A DNA stretch of 64,000 nucleotides. It comes from an uncultured Bacilli bacterium. GTDB lineage: Bacteria > Bacillota_I > Bacilli_A > RF39 > UBA660. The stretch is from positions 35,215 to 99,214 of the forward strand of contig CAKOSE010000002.1 in NCBI GenBank assembly GCA_934102055.1. The letters run 5' to 3'. Positions 7,931 to 38,648 of this stretch are shown in pieces; the stretch's first letter is position 1; each line of letters starts with the position of its first letter. The position numbers and the translations under genes are program-made. The notes beneath the pieces are model-generated. The model was not told where the DNA came from. It saw nothing but the letters and a program-made list of their open reading frames with translations, and did no database searches.

Positions 7931-9586
7931 TTATTTTATTTCAACAATATCATTACCAAATACATCATTAGCAACACTAACAATATCAGATAAATCACTT
8001 GTCTCTTCAACAATTATATCATTATTTTCCTCATTTTGTTCAATATATTTATATATTTTCCCAGATTTAATGTCAGATACATACTTATTCCTTAACTCAA
8101 CCCATTCATCACTAAGAACAAAAGCCAAATTATAAAACTTACCCATAACCAAATTAAATAACAGTTCCAATTTTGCCAAATTTTGGCAAGCATTTTCAAC
8201 AATAGATGAATAATTAGCAGATAAAATAATATCCTTTTCCCCCACTACTTCAACATTAGAATCAAGAAAATACGACACTATAGAAGAAAATTCCTTATTA
8301 TGAACATAATCATTAAAACCTTGCCATTTGCTAATAATATCTTTTTTTAAATCCTTATTAGCCAAAGCAAAAGCATTATTAATAATAATATCAAAATTCT
8401 TATAAACAAAATTAAGTTCATTCCTATTATTTCTAGATTCTTCAATAAACCCATCCGAAGCAGATTTTTCTTCTTTTTTAACTTTAACTTCAACTTCATC
8501 AGATTTTATTTCTTCTTCATTATTAACACTTTTATTTTCACAAATTATTTCCCGGGAAATAATTTTAGAATTTTTCAATTTATTAATAATTTTCAAAACA
8601 CCAATTTCAAAACACAACAGAGGATTAACAGCAAATTTCAATTCATAATTAATAGAACTAAACCCTTCGACCAAAATCAAAACACTATCTAAAGAAGAAT
8701 CAGTAGCAATACTCTTATTTTTCAAAAACAAAAGCATTTGCTCAGTTATCAAATCAACACTTTTTCCATAATTTACCAATTCTTCTATAGAATAAAATGT
8801 ACCCTTAATATCTTTATTAACAATACTATTATAAATGTTTTCAATCACATCATCATTTACCAAACCAACAACATCATAAAATAAATTTTCATCTATTTTA
8901 TTAGAAAAAGAAACAAGTTTATCCAATAAACCAATAGAATCCCTTAAACCACCATTACAATAAGTAGCAATCAAATTTAAAACTTTATCATCAAAAACAA
9001 TATTTTCTTTTTCACATATGTTTTCCAAACAACGAACTATATCATCAACACCAATTCTTTTAAAATCATAACATTGACATCTAGAAATAATAGTTTCAGG
9101 AACCTTATCCAACTCAGTAGTAGCAAGAATAAAAATAACATGTTTAGGAGGTTCCTCTAAAGTTTTTAATAATGCATTAAAAGCACTAACAGATAACATA
9201 TGAACCTCATCAATTATATAAACCTTATATTTAGATACACTAGGCATCAAAACAGCCTTTTCACGAATAGCTCTGATCTCATCAACACCATTATTAGATG
9301 CTGCATCAATTTCAATTATATCTGGATTACTCTTAGAATTAAACAACTGACAACTAGAACATTCATTGCAAGGATTATATCCATCCAAATTAGAGCAATT
9401 AACAATTTTAGCAATTAACTTAGCAATAGTAGTTTTCCCAGTTCCACGCGGACCAGAAAACAAATAAGCATGAAAAAATCTATTGTTTATAACAGAATTT
9501 TTTATAATTTCAACAATATATTTTTGACCATATACTTCATCTAAACTTTTAGGTCTATATTTTCTATACAAAGCCACATAATTCAC
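7931..9586 (-). CDS. dnaX: DNA polymerase III gamma/tau subunit
   Basis: AAA+ motifs GPRGTGKTT, IIDEVHML and SRCQ. Start moved to GTG 9586, with a GGGGGTG RBS 5 nt upstream; homology begins at NYVALYRKYRP. The extra 41 codons in the track overlie the promoter and a parS site. Confidence 0.93.
   Translation of the reverse strand: MNYVALYRKYRPKSLDEVYGQKYIVEIIKNSVINNRFFHAYLFSGPRGTGKTTIAKLIAKIVNCSNLDGYNPCNECSSCQLFNSKSNPDIIEIDAASNNGVDEIRAIREKAVLMPSVSKYKVYIIDEVHMLSVSAFNALLKTLEEPPKHVIFILATTELDKVPETIISRCQCYDFKRIGVDDIVRCLENICEKENIVFDDKVLNLIATYCNGGLRDSIGLLDKLVSFSNKIDENLFYDVVGLVNDDVIENIYNSIVNKDIKGTFYSIEELVNYGKSVDLITEQMLLFLKNKSIATDSSLDSVLILVEGFSSINYELKFAVNPLLCFEIGVLKIINKLKNSKIISREIICENKSVNNEEEIKSDEVEVKVKKEEKSASDGFIEESRNNRNELNFVYKNFDIIINNAFALANKDLKKDIISKWQGFNDYVHNKEFSSIVSYFLDSNVEVVGEKDIILSANYSSIVENACQNLAKLELLFNLVMGKFYNLAFVLSDEWVELRNKYVSDIKSGKIYKYIEQNEENNDIIVEETSDLSDIVSVANDVFGNDIVEIK
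8547..8560. promoter_or_regulatory. Noc-binding-site (NBS) palindrome inside dnaX coding sequence
   Basis: ATTTCCCGGGAAAT is a perfect match to the B. subtilis NBS consensus. It is embedded in the 24-bp palindrome AAATTATTTCCCGGGAAATAATTT (8542-8565) and encodes IISREII of DnaX. Confidence 0.7.
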
Positions 9587-9613
9587 GGTTACACCCCCAA
9601 AAAAGATAATATT

Positions 9614-9624
9614 ATTATAGCACA
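9614..9624 (-). promoter_or_regulatory. extended -10 promoter element for dnaX
   Basis: Minus strand reads TGTGCTATAAT about 28 nt upstream of the GTG start. Confidence 0.5.
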
Positions 9625-9679
9625 CATGCAAAAACATCTTCAATAAAAATAAATACTTTTCAGTCATTAATATAAGTAA

Positions 9680-9695
9680 TGTTTCACGTGAAACA
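9680..9695. promoter_or_regulatory. parS site 1 (perfect)
   Basis: TGTTTCACGTGAAACA. Centre of a 32-bp perfect palindrome at 9672-9703. Confidence 0.85.
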
Positions 9696-9763
9696 TTACT
9701 TATTAACAATATAAATTACTTCACCTAACATTACACTTAAAAATAAATATTTATGCAATCTCA

Positions 9764-9779
9764 TGTTTCACGTGAAACA
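9764..9779. promoter_or_regulatory. parS site 2 (perfect)
   Basis: TGTTTCACGTGAAACA. 22-bp palindrome at 9761-9782. Shares TCATG...CATGATCAT flanks with site 5. Confidence 0.85.
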
Positions 9780-9845
9780 TGATCATTTCTCTTATAAAAA
9801 AATAACAAAATGCAGATCATATGAGAATATAAACATACCCAAATT

Positions 9846-9859
9846 ATTTCCCGGGAAAT
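9846..9859. promoter_or_regulatory. Noc-binding-site palindrome 2
   Basis: ATTTCCCGGGAAAT within a 26-bp perfect palindrome at 9840-9865. Confidence 0.75.
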
Positions 9860-9952
9860 AATTTGTTACACATTCAACACAAAAAAATAACATTTAAGAG
9901 CAAATACATCACCCTTTTCATATTATTGTGACTTATAAATTAACACAACATA

Positions 9953-9968
9953 TGTTTCACGTGAAACA
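9953..9968. promoter_or_regulatory. parS site 3 (perfect)
   Basis: TGTTTCACGTGAAACA. 22-bp palindrome at 9950-9971. Confidence 0.85.
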
Positions 9969-10157
9969 TATATATTGACATCATAAAAATAGCAATAAAA
10001 TTAAGTATATTAATGAAACAACATCTTCACTTTGTTCAAGACAGAAATATGCTTTTAAAATACAACCACAACATATTGGATAGTTATTAACAATCTATAC
10101 TCTAGTTACAAGAATAAACTTCAATTTTTCTATCAATTACACTATTTGTATAGTATA

Positions 10158-10175
10158 GTTTAGTTTAAACTAAAC
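10158..10175. repeat. 18-bp perfect palindrome GTTTAGTTTAAACTAAAC of unknown function
   Basis: Read directly. Lies in the widest gap of the parS array. Shares the 13-mer TAGTTTAGTTTAA with 22708-22720. Confidence 0.6.
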
Positions 10176-10235
10176 ATTTCACATTTTTCACAAATATAAT
10201 AATTGCAAACTAACATTATTTAACACTCTTAACAA

Positions 10236-10251
10236 TGTTTCACGTGAAACA
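10236..10251. promoter_or_regulatory. parS site 4 (perfect)
   Basis: TGTTTCACGTGAAACA. 18-bp palindrome at 10235-10252. Confidence 0.85.
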
Positions 10252-10306
10252 TAAAATTTCACTAATTTACAAATTATCAATTACATATACTCCAATATAT
10301 CAAATT

Positions 10307-10320
10307 ATTTCCCGGGAAAT
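10307..10320. promoter_or_regulatory. Noc-binding-site palindrome 3
   Basis: ATTTCCCGGGAAAT within a 32-bp perfect palindrome at 10298-10329. Confidence 0.75.
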
Positions 10321-10363
10321 AATTTGATACACACTAACTATATATATATTAAAAAGATGATCA

Positions 10364-10379
10364 TGTTTCACGTGAAACA
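10364..10379. promoter_or_regulatory. parS site 5 (perfect), doubling as the tadA terminator hairpin
   Basis: TGTTTCACGTGAAACA at the centre of a 40-bp perfect palindrome (10352-10391). The palindrome includes the tadA stop (10383-10385) and is followed by a T-run on the minus strand. Confidence 0.85.
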
Positions 10380-10382
10380 TGA

Positions 10383-10790
10383 TCATCTTTTATCAATAAA
10401 AAATTGTTTTAACATATCAGAATACTCATAATTCCCTACTACACTCTCAACATTAATATATTCACGATTTTTACTTAAATTATTATTATAATTAGAATTC
10501 AATAAATAAAAAACATTTCTGATACGTGCTTCCGCTAAAGCATTAATACACATCGCGCAAGGCTTTAACGTAACATAAATATCACACTCATTTAAATACC
10601 AAGAATTCAAATATTTACATGCATCAATAATACATAAAATCTCAGCATGATTTACTGCTATATTAGAGGTGTTTTTAGTATTATGAGCTTTAGCAATTAT
10701 AATACCATCCCGTACAATAACAGCACCAACAGGAACATTTCCCTCATTAAAAGCCTTCTCAGCCTCAGAAATAGCAACCTTCATATACAT
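10383..10790 (-). CDS. tadA: tRNA-specific adenosine deaminase
   Basis: 135 aa with CDA zinc motifs HAE and PCAMC. ATG 10790 lies 7 nt after GGAGG. The 47-codon N-terminal extension in the track is the SRP RNA gene read as protein. Confidence 0.88.
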   Translation of the reverse strand: MYMKVAISEAEKAFNEGNVPVGAVIVRDGIIIAKAHNTKNTSNIAVNHAEILCIIDACKYLNSWYLNECDIYVTLKPCAMCINALAEARIRNVFYLLNSNYNNNLSKNREYINVESVVGNYEYSDMLKQFFIDKR

Positions 10791-10803
10791 AATAAAACCT
10801 CCA

Positions 10804-10884
10804 AAAAAAAAGTGCACACACATAGAGGATTTTAAGGCTGCTATCTTCCGATCCTGACCTAGTTCAACCATATGTGTTGCACTA
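10804..10884 (-). ncRNA. ffs: signal recognition particle RNA, minimal (4.5S-like) hairpin form
   Basis: Minus strand GUGCAACACAUAUGGUUGAACUAGGUCAGGAUCGGAAGAUAGCAGCCUUAAAAUCCUCUAUGUGUGUGCAC followed by U9. Domain IV GGUCAGG-AUC-GGAA-GAU-AGCAGCC matches E. coli GGUCAGGUCCGGAAGGAAGCAGCC with a compensatory stem change. The ends pair as a 71-nt hairpin at 10812-10882. Confidence 0.88.
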
Positions 10885-10889
10885 ACAAA

Positions 10890-10919
10890 ATTATATACCA
10901 AAGAACAAATAAATGTCAA
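10890..10919 (-). promoter_or_regulatory. sigma-A type promoter of the SRP RNA
   Basis: Minus strand has TTGACA (10919-10914), an 18-nt spacer, then TATAAT (10895-10890). The hairpin starts about 8 nt downstream. Confidence 0.7.
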
Positions 10920-11027
10920 CATAGATATCACTTTTTTCTAAACTAGCAACAAATTATATATTTATTAACAATTGTAATTTAACAAAAATAAATAAAACTA
11001 AAAGTTAACCATATATTTATAAAAAAA

Positions 11028-11043
11028 TGTTTCACATGAAACT
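11028..11043. promoter_or_regulatory. parS-like site 6 (degenerate)
   Basis: TGTTTCACATGAAACT has two mismatches, one being CG to CA at the central CpG. Flanked by A/T runs. Confidence 0.5.
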
Positions 11044-11151
11044 ATAAAAAACAAAATATTCATCTTTTTTTACGGAAAAAATAGACTTATTAACAATTAG
11101 AAAGTGCTTATAAAAACTTGAATTTACAAATTTTTGAGCAAAAAAAAAGAA

Positions 11152-11167
11152 TGTTTCACGTGAAACA
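11152..11167. promoter_or_regulatory. parS site 7 (perfect), doubling as the gyrA terminator hairpin
   Basis: TGTTTCACGTGAAACA in a 20-bp palindrome (11150-11169) that overlaps the gyrA stop (11168-11170). Followed by CUUUUUUUUU on the minus strand. Confidence 0.85.
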
Positions 11168-13618
11168 TTACTCACTATCAACACTCTCTTCTTCTAAAAC
11201 GTCATCTACTTGCTTAGCTAATACTGTTACAGATGTAACAATTTGTCTATCTTTTAGATGCATCAATCTAACACCTTGAGTATTTCTTCTCAAAGTAGAA
11301 ACATTATTAACATCAAGCCTAATTACAGTACCCTCATCAGTAGTAATGATTATATCCTCATCACCAGAAACTGATTTAAATGCAACAATTAAACCATTCT
11401 TATCAGTAATATTAAGAGCTTTAACACCTTTACTACCACGATGAGTTAAACGATATTCATTAACATCTGTCTTTTTGCCATATCCCTTTTCAGTAACAAC
11501 TAGTATTAGTTCAGAGTTATTAACAATTTCTGCTCCGATTACCTTAGCATCAATTAAATCAATTCCCTTGACACCAGAGGCTCCTCGCCCCATAACACGA
11601 ACATCCGTTTCATTAAATCTAACCATTCTTCCAGCATTAGAAGCAATAATAACTTCATCATTACCACTAGTCTTCTTAACTCCTATTAACTCATCATTAT
11701 CCTTTAAGATAATAGCAATTTTACCATTCTTTCTAATAGAATCAAACTCACTGATATCAGTTCTTTTAACAAGTCCATTAACAGTAAAGAAAATTAAATA
11801 CTTACTTTCATCTTCCTTTTCAACAGGAATAATAGCATTAATAATCTCATCCTTTTCCAAAGGCAAGATATTAACAACAGGAACACCTTTAGATTGCCTG
11901 CTAAACTCAGGTAGCTCATAACATTTAATACGATATACCTTTCCACGATTACTGAAAAATAACAAATAATCATGGCTATAACAATTAACTAACTTTTCAA
12001 CAATATCTTCATCATTAGTAGACATACCCTTAATACCTACTCCACCACGATTTTGACTTCGATAAGTATCAGAATTCAATCTTTTAATATAACCATTTTT
12101 TGTCATAGAAACAATTATATCATCATTAGGTATCAAAGATTCATCCTCTATATAATCAATTGCAGTCATATCAATATTAGTACGACGTTCATCACCATAT
12201 TTATCAGCAATCTCCTTCATTTCACTCTTAATAATTTCATTAACCTTATCCTCACTACCAAGAATACTACGAAGTTCCTCAATTAATTTAAGTGTTTCCG
12301 CCAAATCTCTCTCAATCTTATCCCTTTCAAGACCAGTCAAACGTCTCAATTTAAGTTCCAAAATAGCATCAGCTTGTGTATCACTTATAGCATATAAATT
12401 TTTAAGCCTATCCTTAGCAATTACATCACTCTCACTCTCACGGATAATTTTAATAAAATCATCCAAATGATCAAGAGCAATTTTATAACCCTCTAAAATA
12501 TGTGCTTTTGCAAGAGCCTTATCCAAATCAAACCTAGTTCGACGAATAATAACTTCCTTTTGATGTTCAATATACTTAACAATAATATCTTTAAGACCTA
12601 AAAGCTTTGGAACGCCCTGATCTAACATAAGTAATATAATACCAAAAGTATTTTGAAGTTGAGTATGTTTATATAAATTATTTAACACAACATTAGCATT
12701 AGCATCTTTTTTAAGAGTAATAACAATCTTAACACCAAAATCACTACCATTTTCCTCATGATAATCAGCAATACCATCAAGAATCTTATCTCTTACCAAA
12801 GAAGCAATACGATTCTTCAAATCCATCGTATTAAGTCCATAAGGTATCTCAGAAATTACTATTTTACTTTTATGCCCACTCTCCTCAATAGAAGCCTTAC
12901 ATCTAACAGTAATTGTACCACGACCAGTTTCATAAGCCTTGCGAATACCACTATTACCAAGAATGATAGCACCAGTCGGAAAATCAGGACCCTTAATATG
13001 TTGCATCAATTCATCTAGTGTAATATCATTATTATCAATATAAGCAATACATCCATTAACAACTTCCCTCAAATTATGAGGAGGAATATTAGTAGCCATA
13101 CCAACTGCAATACCCATAGTACCATTAACCAAAATATTAGGAAATCTACTAGGTAAAACAACAGGTTCCTTCTCTTCCTCATCAAAATTTGGAATAAAAT
13201 CAACAGTATTCTTATTTAAATCCCTTAATAATTCCAAACTAATCTTTGACAAACGTGCTTCAGTATAACGCATAGCAGCAGCACCATCGCCATCCATATT
13301 ACCAAAGTTACCATGCCCATCAACAAGCATATAACGATAACTAAAATCCTGAGCCATTCTCACCATTGCTTCGTATATAGAACTATCTCCATGCGGATGA
13401 TATTTTCCCATAACATCCCCAACTATTCTAGCACACTTACGATGACCCTTATCAGGCATATAACCAGAATCAAACATCGAATACAAAATACGACGATGAA
13501 CTGGTTTTAATCCATCACGAAGATCAGGTAAAGCACGAGCCACTATAACACTCATAGAATAGTCCAAAAATGACTTTTTAACTTCATTTACAATATTATT
13601 TTCTTCTAATCTATCCAT
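11168..13618 (-). CDS. gyrA: DNA gyrase subunit A
   Basis: 816 aa. Catalytic-Tyr region [14 protein letters not shown] and a C-terminal beta-pinwheel. Confidence 0.97.
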
Positions 13619-17403: not shown

Positions 17404-17438
17404 AAGAACTTATTAACAATTGTTGTTAATAAGTTCTT
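17404..17438. promoter_or_regulatory. inverted pair of DnaA-box-like 9-mers overlapping the dnaN stop
   Basis: 15-nt arms at 17404-17418 and 17424-17438 contain TTATTAACA (17410-17418) and TGTTAATAA (17424-17432), with a 5-nt spacer. Confidence 0.55.
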
Positions 17439-18544
17439 ATAGGTAATATCAAACATACAAGCTCTTCACTATCATCATTTTTAAGCAAAATAGGTTTAAT
17501 CTCACCAACAAATGTAATAATAACATTACGAGATTTAATAGTACGAAGAGCATCCATCATATACTTAGCACTAAAAGAAATCTTAATATCATTATCACAA
17601 GAAACATTCATTTTCTCCTCAACTTTACCTATTTCAAGAGACATTGAAGTAATCTTAAGAAGATTATTCTTTATTTCCATAGTAATTATATTATTATCAG
17701 TATCATTATTTAAAATACTAGCTCTATCAACCATATTATAAAATTCATTACAATCAAGTTTTAAATCAAAAATAGAATCACTAGGAATTAAATTCTTAGT
17801 ATTAGGATAAGTACCACTAATAAGCCTAGACTGAAATAAAATATCATTAAACTTAAATATAACCTTATTACTAAATAAATGCATTTCAATAACCTCATCA
17901 TCCCCAGAAGACAAAAGTTTCAAAAGTTCATTTAAATTCTTACTAGGAATAATAATATCAATACCATTATTAACACCATTTGTTAATAACTTCTTCCTAA
18001 GAGCAAGCCTATAAGAATCAGTAGCACTACATTCAAGATTATTTCCATCAATCTTAAAATTAACACCAGTTAAAACAACCCTAGCTTCATCCAAAGAACA
18101 AGCATAATTAGTTTGTAAAATCATAGATCTAAACTCATCAATACTTATACTAATAAATTCTGGAGATAAATCTAAATTAATATCAGGATATTCCCTAGCT
18201 TCAATACCATTCAAATTAAACTCACTATTCTCAGTAAAAATTATAATCTTATGATCATCTATAATTTCAATATTAATAAACTCAGAATCAAGTTTTCTAA
18301 TAATATCAAGAATATATTTTCCTTTAATAACTATACTACCAGTATTATCAATAATTAAATTATCCCCCTTAGAAATTACAGTCTGAATAGTAATATCATT
18401 ATCTGAAGCAGTAAGTACTAACCTATCTCTATGTAATTCAAACTTAATACCAGATAAAATAGGAATAATATTCTTTGTAGAAATTGCTTTAGAAACATTA
18501 TTTAAAGCTTCAAGTAAAACTACTCTTTTAATTTTTAATTTCAT
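17426..18544 (-). CDS. dnaN: DNA polymerase III beta sliding clamp
   Basis: 372 aa of three-domain clamp length, N-terminus MKLKIKRVVLLEALNNVSKAIS. dnaA-dnaN synteny. Confidence 0.95.
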   Translation of the reverse strand: MKLKIKRVVLLEALNNVSKAISTKNIIPILSGIKFELHRDRLVLTASDNDITIQTVISKGDNLIIDNTGSIVIKGKYILDIIRKLDSEFINIEIIDDHKIIIFTENSEFNLNGIEAREYPDINLDLSPEFISISIDEFRSMILQTNYACSLDEARVVLTGVNFKIDGNNLECSATDSYRLALRKKLLTNGVNNGIDIIIPSKNLNELLKLLSSGDDEVIEMHLFSNKVIFKFNDILFQSRLISGTYPNTKNLIPSDSIFDLKLDCNEFYNMVDRASILNNDTDNNIITMEIKNNLLKITSMSLEIGKVEEKMNVSCDNDIKISFSAKYMMDALRTIKSRNVIITFVGEIKPILLKNDDSEELVCLILPIRTY

Positions 18545-18687
18545 AAATATACCTTCTTTCTTTTTTTATTATTAATATATTAATTTTATTATTACTGTTA
18601 ATATTGTTAATAAGTCCTAAAAAGCCTTTAATATCAACAGATAATACCAACAATAATTGTTAATAACTATTAACAATTTTAACAATT
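18545..18687 (-). promoter_or_regulatory. oriC part 2 (dnaA-dnaN spacer): tandem DnaA boxes, TAA trios and AT-rich unwinding candidate
   Basis: Minus strand reads TTATTAACA (18613-18605), ATATTAACA (18604-18596), G, then TAA-TAA-TAA (18594-18586), then about 40 nt of almost pure A/T up to the dnaN start. Further boxes at 18658-18666 and 18667-18675. Confidence 0.7.
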
Positions 18688-20058
18688 CTATGTTAATTGC
18701 TTCTCAATATTGTTAATAGCATCATTTAAATCTCTATTAATTTTCATTTCCCTTTCAATCTTATTACAGGCATGAATAACAGTAGCATGATTTTTTCCAG
18801 AAAACTCAATTCCAATTCTTTCAAAAGATTCATCAGTAAGTTTTCTACACAAATACATAGCAACTTGTCTAGGAATAGCAAGGTTTGGAGTCCTTTTCTT
18901 AGATTTCATATCTTCAAAAGAAATATTATAGAAATTAGCAACAATCTTTTGGATACGCCGTATATTATTTTGATCTGTAACAGCGTCTTTTCTAGTAAAA
19001 TCACGTAAAGCTTCCATTGCAAACTCAAGAGAAATATCAGTAACACACATAATCGCAGAATAAGCAACTAATCTAGTAATAGACCCCTCAAGCTGCCTAA
19101 CATCATTACCAATATTCGATGCAATATAAGCAATAACTTCTTCATTAATAAAAATATTTTCACCTTTTAATTTTTTTCTAATAATTGCAATCTTAAGAGA
19201 ATAATCCGGAGGACTAATATCAACTTGTAACCCCCAAGCAAAGCGTGTCCTAAGTCTATCTTCAAGAACTTTCAAATCCTCAGGAGATCTATCCGAGGAA
19301 ACAATAATTTGCTTACTATCATTATATAAGTTATTAAATGTATGAAAAAACTCTTGCTGAGTTTTTTCTGCCCCACCCAAAAACTGAATATCATCAATCA
19401 AAAGAACATCAACATTTCTATATTTATTCTTAAAAAACTCTACATAATCTAGATTATTGCCACTATTTCCTTTTCTAGCAATGCCAGTAAAATCATTCAT
19501 AAAGTCATCACTAGTAACATAAAGAACTCTCTTTTTATATTTATTCTCAATATAATTTCCTATAGCATGCATAAGATGAGTTTTCCCAAGACCACTATTT
19601 CCGTATATAAACAAAGGATTATACATAGTACCAGGATTTTCAGCAACAGCAAGAGCAGCAGCTTGAGCAAATTTATTAGATTCACCAACTACAAAACTCT
19701 CAAAAGTATAATTCTTATTAAGATTAGAAACATGAACACCAACAAAAGAATTATTATCATCAGAAGAATCTTTATCTTGATTTTTATCACTTTCCAAAAA
19801 ATCAGAAACATTCTCCTTAAGTATATATATAATGTTATCAACAGGTTCTGTTAATAACTTATTAAAACTATCAATAATAACATCTCTATAAGTAGAATCT
19901 ATATGAGTTTTATAAAGAAGTAAAGGAACAACAATCCTAATATTGTTCTTATCAATACCAATAAAATCAATAGCCATAAACCAAGTCTGATAAGTAATAG
20001 GGTCAACAATATTACTAATATTATCTAAAACTTTTTGCCACAACAATTTATTGTTCAT
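18688..20058 (-). CDS. dnaA: chromosomal replication initiator DnaA
   Basis: 456 aa. AAA+ motifs GNSGLGKTHL and LLIDDIQFL, plus the C-terminal DnaA-box-binding domain. Confidence 0.97.
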   Translation of the reverse strand: MNNKLLWQKVLDNISNIVDPITYQTWFMAIDFIGIDKNNIRIVVPLLLYKTHIDSTYRDVIIDSFNKLLTEPVDNIIYILKENVSDFLESDKNQDKDSSDDNNSFVGVHVSNLNKNYTFESFVVGESNKFAQAAALAVAENPGTMYNPLFIYGNSGLGKTHLMHAIGNYIENKYKKRVLYVTSDDFMNDFTGIARKGNSGNNLDYVEFFKNKYRNVDVLLIDDIQFLGGAEKTQQEFFHTFNNLYNDSKQIIVSSDRSPEDLKVLEDRLRTRFAWGLQVDISPPDYSLKIAIIRKKLKGENIFINEEVIAYIASNIGNDVRQLEGSITRLVAYSAIMCVTDISLEFAMEALRDFTRKDAVTDQNNIRRIQKIVANFYNISFEDMKSKKRTPNLAIPRQVAMYLCRKLTDESFERIGIEFSGKNHATVIHACNKIEREMKINRDLNDAINNIEKQLT

Positions 20059-20327
20059 AATACCATCTCCCCATTTCTGATAAAAGTTAATAACCTGTAT
20101 TTAATTGTAATACATTTTTATTTTTTTGAAAAGATAAAAAACTTATTAACAGAGTTATTAACATACTTATTAACAAATCTTTTCCTTTGATTACATACTA
20201 TAAAATAGATTTTAACAAATTTCAAGTAAAAAGTTGTTAACAACATTAACAATTGTTAAAAAGAAAATTGTTAATTAACGTTAATATTGTTAATAAGTAT
20301 CATTTTAAACAACAACAAACAAAACTA
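20059..20327. promoter_or_regulatory. oriC part 1: DnaA-box cluster upstream of dnaA
   Basis: Three direct TTATTAACA copies in 12-bp register (20143, 20155, 20167), an inverted copy at 20288-20296, several 1-2 mismatch copies at 20085-20280, and an AT-rich tract at 20101-20140. Strand and composition switch occur here. Confidence 0.75.
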
Positions 20328-34095: not shown

Positions 34096-35952
34096 ATGAA
34101 TTATGACATAATAGTAGTCGGAGGAGGCCATGCTGGATGCGAAGCAGCTCTTGCATCAGCAAGATTAAATAACAAAACATTATTAATAACAGGAAACAAA
34201 AACAACATAGCAGACGCTCCATGTAATCCCTCAATAGGTGGCCCAGCCAAAGGAATAGTAGTAAGAGAAATAGATGCTCTAGGCGGAGAAATGGCAAAAA
34301 ACACAGACAAATCTATTCTCCAAATAAAAAAACTAAACACAAGAAAAGGTCCAGCAGTCTGGGCATTACGAGCACAAATAGACAAAGAAGAATATCAAAA
34401 AAATATGATAGAAACCATAGAACAACAAGAAAACCTAGAAATAAAAGAAACCCTAGTAGAACATCTAATAACAAAAAACAACAAAATACAAGGAGTAATA
34501 ACAAGAGAAAAAGAACAAATATTATCAAAAGCAGTAATCCTAACAACAGGAACTTATCTAAACTCAAATATCTTAATCGGAAACACAAAGAAAAAAGAAG
34601 GTCCACATGGGGAAGAAACAGAACTTAATCTAAGTAAAGATCTAGAAAAACTAGGATTTCCACTAAAAAGACTAAAAACAGGAACCCCTCCGAGAATAAA
34701 AAGAGATACCATAGACTTCACAAAAACCCAAGAAGAAAAAGGATCTCCTACTCCCCTAACCTTCTCATATCAAAATAAAATAATGTATAAACCAGAAAAC
34801 CAAGAAAGTTGTTATCTAATCTATACCACAAAACAAACACATGAAATAATAAACAAAAACCTAAAAAAATCAGCAATGTATGGAGGCTATGCCGAAGGAA
34901 TAGGACCTCGTTACTGCCCTTCCATTGAAGATAAAATAGTAAGATTTAATGACAAAGAAAGACACCAATTATTTCTAGAACCAGAAACAAAAAAATATGA
35001 CACAATATATGTCCAAGGATTCTCAACAAGTATGCCCAAAGACATCCAAGAACAAATGATAAAATCCTTACCAGGTCTAGAAAATGCAAAAATATTAAAA
35101 TATGCCTATGCCATAGAGTACGATGCCATAGATCCAAGGACATTAAAAAGAACTCTTGAAACAAAAATAATAGAAAATCTATACACAGCAGGACAAATAA
35201 ACGGAACAAGTGGTTATGAAGAAGCAGCATGTCAAGGACTAATCGCAGCAATAAATGCAAGTCAAAAATTACAAAATAAAGAGCCATTAATCCTAAGAAG
35301 AGACGAAGCTTACATAGGAGTCCTAATAGATGATCTAATAACAAAAGGAGTACAAGATCCATATAGATTATTAACATCACGAGCAGAATATCGTCTTCTT
35401 CTAAGAGACGATAACGCAGACCAAAGACTATCAAAATACGGAATAGAACTAGGACTATTAAACAAACAACAAGAAAATATGTATAAAGAAAAACAACAAA
35501 ATATAAAAAAACTTTTAAAAGAACTAAATAAAGAAATAACACCAAAACAAGAAACAAACAAAATCCTAGAATCCCAAAAGATAAACAAAATAACAGACAA
35601 AATATCCCTACATAATCTCTTAAAAAGACCAGAAGTAACAGTAGATAAACTAAAACCATTCCTAAAAGAAAACTATACACAAGAAGTAAAAGAAGAAATA
35701 GAAATAATGATAAAATACGAAGGATACATAAAAAAATCAAAAGAAGAAGCAAAAAAACAAGCAGAATACGAAAACATCACACTAAAAGAAAACATAGACT
35801 ACTCAAAAATACCAAACTTAGCCCTAGAAGCACGAGAAAAACTAAACAAAATAAAACCAAACTCTCTAGGACAAGCAATGAGAATAAGCGGAGTAAATCC
35901 AAGCGACATATCAAGCATAATGATATATCTAAAAAGAGGTAAAAATGAATAA
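34096..35952 (+). CDS. mnmG: tRNA uridine 5-carboxymethylaminomethyl modification enzyme MnmG
   Basis: 618 aa. FAD motif [12 protein letters not shown]. Confidence 0.97.
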
Positions 35953-36637
35953 AGAAACATTTAAACAAGAGCTAAAAAAACTAAATATAGAAATAACAAG
36001 AGAACAAGAACAAATGCTAGAAAAATACTATAATTTACTAATAGAAACAAACAAAACAACAAACCTAACAAGAATAACAAACAAAGAAGAAGTCTATCTA
36101 AAACACTTTTACGATTCATTAACAATATCAAAAGTAATAAATCTAACAAACCAAAAAATAATAGACATAGGAACAGGCGCAGGTTTTCCAGGAATAGTTC
36201 TAAAAATAATATATAAAGATCTAAATATAACACTGTTAGACTCATCAAAAAAAAGAATAGACTTTCTAAATAAAGTAATAAAAGAACTAAATCTAACAAA
36301 CATAAAAACAATTCACGAAAGAATAGAAAACTATAAAGAAGAACAATTTGATATAGTAACATCACGAGCAGTAGCAAAAACAAATATGCTCCTAGAACTA
36401 TCATGTAATCTAGCAAAAATAAACGGTTACTACATATTCCTAAAAGGAAACCTAGAAGAAGAACTAACTGAATCACAAAACGCTATAAAAAAATTAAACT
36501 TAAAACTAATCCAAAAAGAACAATTTCATCTTCCTATAGAAAACAGTAAAAGAACAATAATAAAAATACAAAAACAAAAAAACTCTCCAAAAGAATATCC
36601 AAGAAATTTTGCAAAAATAAAGAAAAACCCATTGTAA
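35945..36637 (+). CDS. rsmG: 16S rRNA m7G527 methyltransferase RsmG
   Basis: 230 aa. SAM motif [10 protein letters not shown]. Overlaps the mnmG end. Confidence 0.95.
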
Positions 36638-36700: not shown

Positions 36701-37765
36701 ATGAACTTAGAAAAAGAAATTTTTGACATATCCTTACAAGATATAATTCCAAATAGATTTCAACCAAGAGAAATGTTTGATGATGAAGCACTAAAAGAAT
36801 TATCACAATCAATAAAAGAACACGGAGTAATTCAACCAATTATAGTAAGAAAAGTTGGAGACAAATACGAAATAATCGCCGGAGAAAGAAGATTCAGAGC
36901 ATCACAATTAGCAGGAAAAACAACAATACCTGCCCTAGTAAGAGACATAGATGATAAAGAAGCCGCAAAAGTTGCCTTGCTAGAAAATCTTCAAAGAAGT
37001 AACCTTACTCCAATCGAAGAAGCAAAAACATACCAAACAATTCTGAAATTGGATAATATTACACAAGATGAGTTAGCGCAAAATCTAGGAAAGTCACAAT
37101 CAACAATAGCAAACAAACTAAGACTATTAACTCTAGATGAAGAAGTACAGACTGCCCTACTAAACTCACAAATATCAGAAAGACACGCAAGGAGCTTGCT
37201 AGGACTAGATCTAAATACTCAAAAAGAACTATTACACAAAATAATAAACGAAAAACTAACAGTAAAAGCCCTAGATGAAGAAATAATGAGAAGAACAGGT
37301 AAAATACCAGAAGAAAAAGTAGTACCAGACATGCAAGAAGGGAGCATAAATCAAATGACCAATAATCCTCAAGCAGTAGAAGTACCACAAATAAATCAAG
37401 TACCAAATATTATGCAAGCGCCTATGCCAAATAACATAAATCAAGTACAAGAAAAACAAAAAGAACCAGAAATTAATAAACAACAAGAACCAATAGAACA
37501 TAAAGAAAACATATTTGATAGACTAAGAGTAAAAGAAGAACCAGAACAAGAACCACAAGAAAATAATCAAACAGTAATAGGAAATAACAATCAACAACAA
37601 CAAGAACCAAGAAACTTTGGTAACATCTATGATTTAAGATTTGCAATAAATAACTTTAGACAAGCAATTCAAAACACAGAAAAATTTGGTTTCAAAGTAA
37701 ATGCACAAGAATATGATCATCCAGACAAATACCAAATAGTAATAGAAATAGACAAAAAGAACTAA
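36701..37765 (+). CDS. noc: nucleoid occlusion protein Noc (ParB paralogue) with a long Q/N/P/E-rich insertion
   Basis: GERRFRAS box. Recognition region GKSQSTIANKLRLL...ISERHAR matches B. subtilis Noc (GKGQSTIANKLRLL...ITERHAR). rsmG-noc-soj-spo0J order, and perfect NBS sites are present in the window. Confidence 0.8.
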   Translation: MNLEKEIFDISLQDIIPNRFQPREMFDDEALKELSQSIKEHGVIQPIIVRKVGDKYEIIAGERRFRASQLAGKTTIPALVRDIDDKEAAKVALLENLQRSNLTPIEEAKTYQTILKLDNITQDELAQNLGKSQSTIANKLRLLTLDEEVQTALLNSQISERHARSLLGLDLNTQKELLHKIINEKLTVKALDEEIMRRTGKIPEEKVVPDMQEGSINQMTNNPQAVEVPQINQVPNIMQAPMPNNINQVQEKQKEPEINKQQEPIEHKENIFDRLRVKEEPEQEPQENNQTVIGNNNQQQQEPRNFGNIYDLRFAINNFRQAIQNTEKFGFKVNAQEYDHPDKYQIVIEIDKKN

Positions 37766-37862: not shown

Positions 37863-38648
37863 ATGGGAAAAGTAATATCATTAATAAATCAAAAAGGCGG
37901 AGTAGGAAAAACAACAACAAGTATAAACTTATCTGCATCACTAGCTCTGCTAGGAAAAAAAATACTATTAATAGATTTAGATCCACAATGTAATGCAACA
38001 ACAGGAATAGGATTAAACAAAGGAGACATAGAAAAAAGTATTTATAACGTCTTTAATGGAACATCAACAATCGAAGAAGCAATAATAAAAACAAAATATA
38101 AAAACTTATATGTTCTTCCAGCAAATATAAATTTAGCAGGAATAGATATTGAACTAGACCAAACAGAAACACTAGAATCAGTATCAAAATCAGAAAGATT
38201 AAAAGAACACATAAATAAAATAAAAAACACTTACGATTACATAATAATAGATTGTCCACCAGCACTAGGAATAATAACAACAAATGCTTTAACAGCCTCA
38301 GATTCAGTAATTATTCCAGTACAATGTGAATTTTTTGCACTAGAAGGAATAACACAACTATTAAAAGCTATTATGTACACACAAGCAAATCTAAACCCAA
38401 ATCTAACAATAGAAGGAGTATTATTAACAATGTTAGATGCAAGAACAAATCTAGGTTTAGAAGTAGTAGAAGAAATAAGAAGTTACTTTAAAGACAAAGT
38501 ATATAACACAATAATACCAAGATTAATTAGACTAACAGAAGCACCATCGCACGGAAAACCAATAGTAGCATATGATCCAAAATCAAGAGGATCAGAAGCA
38601 TATCTAAATTTAGCCAAAGAGGTGATCAAAGGAAATGGAACAAACTAA
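37863..38648 (+). CDS. soj: chromosome partitioning ATPase ParA/Soj
   Basis: 261 aa. Deviant Walker A NQKGGVGKTT. Confidence 0.96.
   Translation: MGKVISLINQKGGVGKTTTSINLSASLALLGKKILLIDLDPQCNATTGIGLNKGDIEKSIYNVFNGTSTIEEAIIKTKYKNLYVLPANINLAGIDIELDQTETLESVSKSERLKEHINKIKNTYDYIIIDCPPALGIITTNALTASDSVIIPVQCEFFALEGITQLLKAIMYTQANLNPNLTIEGVLLTMLDARTNLGLEVVEEIRSYFKDKVYNTIIPRLIRLTEAPSHGKPIVAYDPKSRGSEAYLNLAKEVIKGNGTN

Follow-up and report, generated by a model that had tools for sequence, protein, structure and literature searches.

Noc-binding sites interleaved with a parS array near the origin of an uncultured Bacilli bacterium: a probable composite hub for two ParB-family clamps

Noc is the textbook nucleoid-occlusion factor of Gram-positive bacteria and is defined by dispersed Noc-binding sites (NBS) together with an N-terminal membrane helix gated by cytidine triphosphate (CTP). 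In Bacillus subtilis, NBS are scattered around the chromosome (PMC8429893). Their consensus, as quoted in PMC3020112 from Wu 2009, is 5'-ATTTCCCGGGAAAT-3', and a 22-base-pair (bp) NBS duplex, GGATATTTCCCGGGAAATATCC, was crystallised with Noc (PMC7383237). Four residues, Q173, K179, K184 and R201, give Noc its specificity, and one lysine, at 179 or 184, suffices (Jalal 2020, PMC7383237). For the N-terminal helix, Adams 2015 (PMC4331003) reported that every Noc homologue they looked at was predicted to have it and that Noc does not function without it; a Noc truncated by 10 residues still binds NBS and CTP (PMC4331003, PMC8429893). Staphylococcus aureus Noc restrains replication initiation, a role related to the origin, and gives minor peaks beside dnaA (PMC5540599). 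Here we analyse a window of 64,000 nucleotides from an uncultured Bacilli bacterium (positions 35,215 to 99,214 of contig CAKOSE010000002.1, assembly GCA_934102055.1; all positions below are those of the window). It carries three NBS palindromes in and beside an origin-proximal parS array, and a gene for a Noc-type ParB paralogue, P0001. We think it likely, with a probability of about 0.75, that the palindromes are loading sites for P0001 and that, with six to seven parS, they form a composite origin-proximal hub for two paralogous CTP-dependent clamps.

The 24-mer AAATTATTTCCCGGGAAATAATTT has exactly three copies in the window:

8542 to 8565, no strand: NBS-1, perfect 24-bp palindrome within the part of dnaX that codes for the hypervariable DnaX linker, where it encodes IISREII
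9841 to 9864, no strand: NBS-2, 24-bp palindrome in the dnaX-tadA intergenic hub, with parS at 9764 and 9953 on either side
10302 to 10325, no strand: NBS-3, 24-bp palindrome (32 bp with its flanks), with parS at 10236 and 10364 on either side

Further copies are absent from the window at up to three mismatches, and shuffled sequences are expected to hold none. The 14-mer core ATTTCCCGGGAAAT is likewise confined to these places in the window at up to two mismatches. The same three places alone were returned when the whole draft genome (1,090,521 bp in 42 contigs, 28% G+C, 91.7% complete) was searched with the 14-mer at up to one mismatch and the 16-mer at up to two; even CCCGGG occurs only four times in it. 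The NBS of this draft thus span 1.8 kb, with none elsewhere. A related assembly of higher contiguity (G011; 3 contigs, 96% complete) gives the same picture. The core is identical to that of B. subtilis: the 14/16-bp palindrome (ATTTCCCGGGAAAT / TATTTCCCGGGAAATA) is exact in 3/3 copies. NBS-1 lies ~1.1 kb from the intergenic copies and is read in frame within dnaX as KIISREIIC. An initial annotation, made from the letters of the window, had described three identical 24-bp palindromes with a B. subtilis Noc-binding core, one of them inside dnaX and encoding IISREII. All three stand where it placed them, the published consensus and crystal duplex (PMC3020112, PMC7383237) agree with its core, and the in-frame reading gives its peptide. 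Its view of the flanks would have suffered from NBS elsewhere in the genome that lacked them; mapping the 14-mer genome-wide revealed no NBS outside the hub.

The parS sequence TGTTTCACGTGAAACA is present in six exact copies plus one with two mismatches, all between 9680 and 11167, and parS at up to one mismatch was not found elsewhere in the draft genome:

9680 to 9695, no strand: parS 1, exact
9764 to 9779, no strand: parS 2, exact
9953 to 9968, no strand: parS 3, exact
10236 to 10251, no strand: parS 4, exact
10364 to 10379, no strand: parS 5, exact, in the middle of a 40-bp palindrome that lies at the tadA stop
11028 to 11043, no strand: degenerate parS with two mismatches
11152 to 11167, no strand: parS 7, exact, abutting the gyrA stop

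The array sits among the following genes:

7931 to 9577, minus strand: dnaX (DNA polymerase III tau/gamma), host of NBS-1; the true start is a GTG (VALYRKYRP)
10383 to 10790, minus strand: tadA-like deaminase, with the hub on both sides
10803 to 10888: signal recognition particle (SRP) RNA, the sole Rfam match in the window
11168 to 13618, minus strand: gyrA
18688 to 20058, minus strand: dnaA, the origin marker; the open reading frames run dnaA-dnaN-recF-gyrB-gyrA

On the minus strand the order is dnaA, dnaN, recF, gyrB, gyrA, SRP RNA, tadA and dnaX, then ybaB and recR, and the hub is ~8.5-10 kb from dnaA/oriC. The non-coding gap of ~800 bp between tadA and dnaX holds NBS-2 and NBS-3 in alternation with parS, so that the interleaving proposed in the initial annotation holds for the copies at 9841 and 10302. 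The locus has the marks of a ParABS centromere, namely six exact parS within 1.5 kb, ~9 kb from dnaA, a ParB with the N-terminal motif, and Soj adjacent. It thereby resembles the centromeres of B. subtilis Spo0J and Caulobacter ParB (PMC7053999, PMC8494293), which share the dense origin-proximal array of perfect parS, the canonical ParB with its N-terminal ParA-interaction motif, the adjacent Soj and the presence of SMC. What sets it apart is that sites for another, paralogous clamp lie among the parS.

The parS palindromes are themselves extended differently from copy to copy, over 18-40 bp. T-runs follow two of them on the transcribed strand, at the tadA stop (10352-10391) and at the gyrA stop (11140-11170); these copies may therefore double as the stem of an intrinsic terminator. 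A perfect 18-bp palindrome of another sequence, GTTTAGTTTAAACTAAAC, lies at 10158-10175, in the widest gap of the hub.

Both ParB paralogues are encoded in one cluster, rsmG(gidB)-noc-soj-spo0J, whose order matches that of B. subtilis and recurs in relatives:

35945 to 36637: rsmG, first gene of rsmG-noc-soj-spo0J
36701 to 37765, plus strand: Noc-type ParB paralogue P0001, 354 amino acids (aa)
37863 to 38648, plus strand: Soj/ParA ATPase P0003
38635 to 39513, plus strand: Spo0J/ParB P0002, 292 aa, with N-terminal motif RRALGRGLEELF and R173/L179/N184/S201

P0002 begins MEQTKRRALGRGLEELF, and the Soj gene adjoins its own. The best solved relatives of P0001 are Noc structures (7ng0, 1e-60; 7ol9, 2e-53), ahead of Spo0J. 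Foldseek with the AlphaFold2 model also places Noc first (7nfu, 54% identity), the fold matching 6sdk as well, and the DNA-binding domain superposes on the Noc-NBS complex 6y93 with a TM-score of 0.87. Over the N-terminal and DNA-binding domains P0001 is 50-54% identical to solved Noc proteins, with which it shares the ParB fold, and 50% identical to P0002. At positions 173/179/184/201 it has Q-K-T-R against R-L-N-S in P0002. This set counts as Noc-type despite the threonine at 184 because one lysine at 179 or 184 is enough. Judged by these residues, P0001 is Noc-type in specificity, as the initial annotation had proposed when it described a Noc-type paralogue whose recognition region departs from Spo0J at the switch positions. 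The residues there are Q173/K179/R201 against R/L/S in P0002; the gene lies beside soj and spo0J at 36701-37765. Its CTP motifs, GERRFRA and ENLQR, are intact, and the longer strings IIAGERRFRAS and LLENLQRS are invariant in 16 orthologues. Homology to the C-terminal domain of canonical Noc extends over the last ~45 residues; in BLASTP, aa 291-354 match such domains with E = 9e-10 and 6e-9. AlphaFold2 models this domain as one helix and two strands with a predicted local distance difference test (pLDDT) score of ~80. Q173, K179, R201, the CTP motifs and the C-terminal domain are thus all shared with B. subtilis Noc (PMC4331003, PMC7383237, PMC8429893).

We then compared the locus across the genus (14 genomes, one per species, DnaX 55-93% identical). 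All 48 NBS of these genomes sit in the gyrA-tadA-dnaX hub, interleaved with 5-9 parS; two seeming outliers are hub fragments at contig edges. The identical 24-mer is found at 31/47 NBS, with the same positions kept in species whose DnaX proteins are 55-75% identical. The information content of the genus NBS is 1-2.8 bits over 24 bp and ~0 immediately outside. By comparison, parS is conserved over 18 bp, and the NBS of other genera over 16 bp only. The initial annotation had noted five extra conserved bp on each side and asked whether they reflect a longer site or recent copying. The recurrence of the 24-mer across diverged species, together with the drop of information outside it, argues for a longer selected site. 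On this comparison the flanks belong to the site, as an extension selected at the level of the genus, and are not the product of recent copying. For the intergenic NBS, the nearest parS is 23-101 bp away with two exceptions, and no clear helical period was apparent by eye in these distances.

The dnaX-internal copy is informative in its own right. The initial annotation had suggested looking for it in dnaX orthologues; it is retained in 10/14 genus genomes, and an exact 16-mer is present in dnaX of one other genus. IISREII is invariant wherever the dnaX NBS exists, and the four genus species without the site have an unrelated peptide. Around NBS-1 the DnaX linker is otherwise unalignable (column conservation 0.1-0.3, many indels). 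The Ser-Arg of the site is coded TCC-CGG, and in this genome TCC makes up 4.2% of Ser codons and CGG 0.46% of Arg codons. Selection on the dnaX NBS acts at the DNA level, because an invariant IISREII island stands in a variable linker and uses rare codons. Taken together, the genus alignments indicate that purifying selection maintains the layout, the extended 24-bp site and the copy within dnaX throughout the genus.

A wider sample covered the family (201 genomes, each at least 90% complete, from 98 genera). Between one and ten exact 16-mers are present in 156/201 genomes (81/98 genera), against 0 for the reversed pattern used as control. Among genomes with listed positions, many have most of their sites on one contig within ~25 kb; in others the sites are split across contigs. 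NBS-parS pairs 10-40 bp apart were found in 37/201 genomes versus 0 for the control. In the genomes whose positions were inspected the NBS are near the origin, and the 16-bp core and its restriction to the origin-proximal region hold across a family of >100 genera. In one family member (G019), the gene that follows rsmG, where noc would be, codes for a protein with E173 and G201 and with GGRR instead of GERR, and the genome has 0 NBS. The specificity residues and CTP motifs of this protein have degenerated together with the loss of the sites, which supports the pairing of Noc with NBS. The G019 gene lies at 1480-3060 of L081 (G019:C27) and encodes 527 aa.

Variant arrangements are seen in other genera. 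Directly downstream of gyrA in one relative (L028, G020:C24, 4933-5107), a 66-bp unit is tandemly repeated three times, each unit pairing one NBS with a parS-like site 27 bp away. The rsmG gene of two other genera contains an NBS ~280 bp upstream of noc (position 1957 in L085, G017:C37; position 1044 in L086, G018:C10), which could serve autoregulation or be a second place of loading.

The picture differs in members of the same class whose Noc carries an N-terminal peptide (MASLFNIL.., MGLFDFLG.., MNIFSG..). In their genomes, 13-23 NBS-like sites, each with 1-2 mismatches, are spread across many contigs; control counts in these four genomes are 0-3 in three and 11 in G038. The draft genome studied here (G000) and G011 have the perfect hub NBS only, plus noise at the control level. 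Similarly, B. subtilis NBS are dozens, degenerate and scattered over the chromosome, while here three perfect copies fall within 1.8 kb, and the recognition element of this genus reaches 24 bp. NBS dispersed through the half to two-thirds of the chromosome nearest the origin are not seen in this genome, and the genus and family behave likewise.

P0001 also lacks the N-terminal amphipathic membrane-targeting helix, as start-site, orthologue and AlphaFold2 evidence agree. Its ATG at 36701 is preceded by an AGAGGGA ribosome-binding site and, 10 codons upstream, by an in-frame TAG. Orthologues across the genus and family start with MNLEKEIF..PNRFQPR and have upstream stops, and the AlphaFold2 model has no helix ahead of strand 1. 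The N-terminal and DNA-binding domains of P0001 were searched against 1.84 billion cluster representatives (50% identity). In ~145 of the best 150, the start is 17-24 aa ahead of FQPR; the residues are Q-K-[N/S/T/A]-R in >120 of them, and almost all are long (median 497 aa, up to 821). The relatives are metagenome-assembled genomes of uncultured gut and rumen Bacilli under varying labels (Mycoplasma sp., Tenericutes, Erysipelotrichaceae). P0001 starts where a 26-residue Noc truncation does, just before strand 1. Truncations of 10 or 26 residues (PMC4331003, PMC8429893) are laboratory constructs that lose membrane binding and nucleoid occlusion, whereas here a large clade naturally has and conserves the short form, along with a new linker.

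This linker is a further difference from B. subtilis Noc. A disordered stretch of 100-450 aa with short motifs is inserted in the clade; in P0001 it covers aa ~200-307 (~100 aa, with ~206-307 predicted disordered, pLDDT ~30), is rich in Q/N/P/E and is hypervariable in length and sequence among orthologues. An island within it, ENIFD[KR]LR[VI], is invariant (ENIFDRLRV in P0001, aa 269-277, window 37505-37531). In the wider clade the recurrent linker motifs are KFFN[LFM], NIF[DE]xLR, NPGFM[DN][IV]..IE..A.DI and [DN]LDSLL.

In a maximum-likelihood tree ParB and Noc separate. Canonical Nocs (B. subtilis, Geobacillus and two same-class genomes) form one clade with support 98/95, and the long anchor-less Nocs fall outside it on short branches, as a polytomy. 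One somewhat doubtful scenario is that a duplicated ParB gained NBS specificity, its sites being mutated parS inside the centromere, and that the helix and dispersed NBS came later in Bacillales. This clade would then keep, or have re-created, the ancestral state, with ParB and Noc clamps co-loaded and coexisting on the same few kb.

By homology with studied Noc proteins, dimers of P0001 would nucleate on NBS through the helix-turn-helix, bind CTP (GERRxRA and ENLQR being intact), close into a clamp and slide onto flanking DNA. Three NBS in and beside the parS array would serve as reloading sites and build a second nucleoprotein complex that overlaps ParB-parS. The complex might reach oriC, ~9 kb away; S. 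aureus Noc, which shares the consensus site, spreads over 8-10 kb, enough to bridge the distance from this hub to oriC (Pang 2017, PMC5540599). Since the sites are few, perfect and clustered and the N-terminal membrane helix is absent, P0001 is most likely an origin or centromere marker rather than a chromosome-wide nucleoid-occlusion factor, and a classical role in nucleoid occlusion is improbable. About its output one can speculate: it might couple origin segregation to division (MinD was not found), control when replication initiates, as in S. aureus, or reinforce the partition complex. Whichever it is, the output probably runs through the long disordered linker and its ENIFD[KR]LR[VI] motif.

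Several observations weigh against the composite-hub interpretation. Exact NBS are missing in 45/201 family genomes, and Noc was not found in two incomplete assemblies that do have NBS (G003 and G012). Further NBS of the present genome might conceivably lie outside the draft, which is 91.7% complete. Position 184 is T, N or S in the clade, so that K184, present in B. subtilis, is not kept, and the Noc model TIGR04285 scores P0001 at 301.7 bits in two stretches, below its cut-off of 315 (P0002 scores 248.5 bits). What P0001 does, in binding, CTPase activity and localisation, is predicted from homology. Finally, the F-centred linker motifs (KFFN[LFM], NIF[DE]xLR) resemble the N-terminal membrane peptides of canonical Noc (LFNIL, NIFSG), and membrane binding may therefore have been retained from another position in P0001.

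This last point is the basis of the strongest alternative, a miniature form of classical nucleoid occlusion, which we judge unlikely. P0001 would tether DNA to the membrane through the internal linker motif (ENIFDRLRV here, KFFNxL in relatives) and block the Z-ring over unsegregated origins; sites at the origin only may be enough for a 1-Mb chromosome with no Min system found. Apart from the clade-wide likeness to the N-terminal peptides of same-class canonical Noc, this alternative draws on the conservation of ENIFD[KR]LR[VI] in a hypervariable linker and on a 4-residue helix at 271-274 in the AlphaFold2 model of P0001. Moreover, a heterologous amphipathic helix restores function to B. subtilis Noc lacking its first 10 residues (PMC4331003). 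The genome encodes FtsZ, as well as SMC, and MinD was not found above the cut-off in the draft (91.7% complete), the sole match being Soj at 93.8 bits. However, the motif did not stand out in a hydrophobic-moment test (0.20 for KENIFDRLRVK). It is short, has acidic neighbours and could equally be a protein-docking peptide. An internal anchor is known in no Noc, and helix alpha-1 of Geobacillus Noc, which packs on the N-terminal domain in an autoinhibitory manner (PMC8429893), has no counterpart here.

It is far less probable that the palindromes are bound by another factor, or are DNA or RNA hairpins (dnaX/tadA operators or terminators) whose identity with NBS is coincidental. Perfect palindromes do fold as hairpins, one weak terminator-like prediction overlaps NBS-2, and neighbouring parS palindromes are located at gene ends. 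Such folding is trivial for a palindrome, and a promoter and terminator scan stayed at background level; we rejected a hairpin or terminator role. The exact sequence, not just the pairing potential, is conserved in >80 genera, against zero occurrences of the reversed control pattern in 201 genomes, and one copy lies within a coding region. The sites also occur together with the NBS-specific paralogue and are gone where its specificity residues have been lost. Least credible is that local duplication or gene conversion recently made functionless copies: all three are identical, and two share a few flanking bases (GTTACACA and GATACACA), but the flanks past 24 bp are not conserved, the added flank similarity extending to the closest relative only, and the 24-mer at equal positions in species with DnaX 55-75% identical rules it out.

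The composite hub, a centromere carrying sites for two paralogous CTP clamps, is best read as a new variant of the Noc-NBS and ParABS arrangements. The literature searched (Mollicutes, RF39, Tenericutes) yielded no NBS confined to a parS hub and no natural Noc without the N-terminal helix; nor did it yield a natural chromosomal centromere shared by two ParB-family specificities. A very large clade of uncultured gut Bacilli, with at least 98 sampled genera, keeps the NBS specificity switch while both defining features of Noc are missing; the best 150 cluster representatives (50% identity) all belong to this protein type. In their place is a handful of perfect NBS inside the parS centromere, one of them forced into the coding sequence of dnaX, a clean case of DNA-level selection overriding protein sequence and codon usage in an essential gene. 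The clade offers a natural system for asking if a single hub can accommodate two paralogous CTP clamps that both load on it and slide. It also invites the question of what role Noc had before membrane tethering, or has without it, and gives an evolutionary snapshot that bears on the ParB-to-Noc specificity switch of Jalal et al.

Possible DnaA boxes were seen near the hub. The string TTATTAACA may be a variant DnaA box; the window has 24 copies versus 3 expected. Eight copies lie in and around the parS/NBS hub (8520-11525), all on the plus strand, and the others cluster around dnaN and dnaA (17410-20296). NBS-2 and NBS-3 share G[T/A]TACACA. The idea of a DnaA box beside every NBS was rejected as a general feature: a TTATNCACA-like box is found within 22 nucleotides at 6/61 sites of relatives, against a background of ~1.5% per window. 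In some genera, repeated 41-bp units consist of an NBS, then a DnaA box (TTATCCACA or TTATNCACA), then a parS (for example G147:C5:33740-34035, G084:C1:48477-49748 and G206:C4:25037-25687). In these units the box shares the two final T of the 24-bp NBS and directly adjoins the 18-bp parS.

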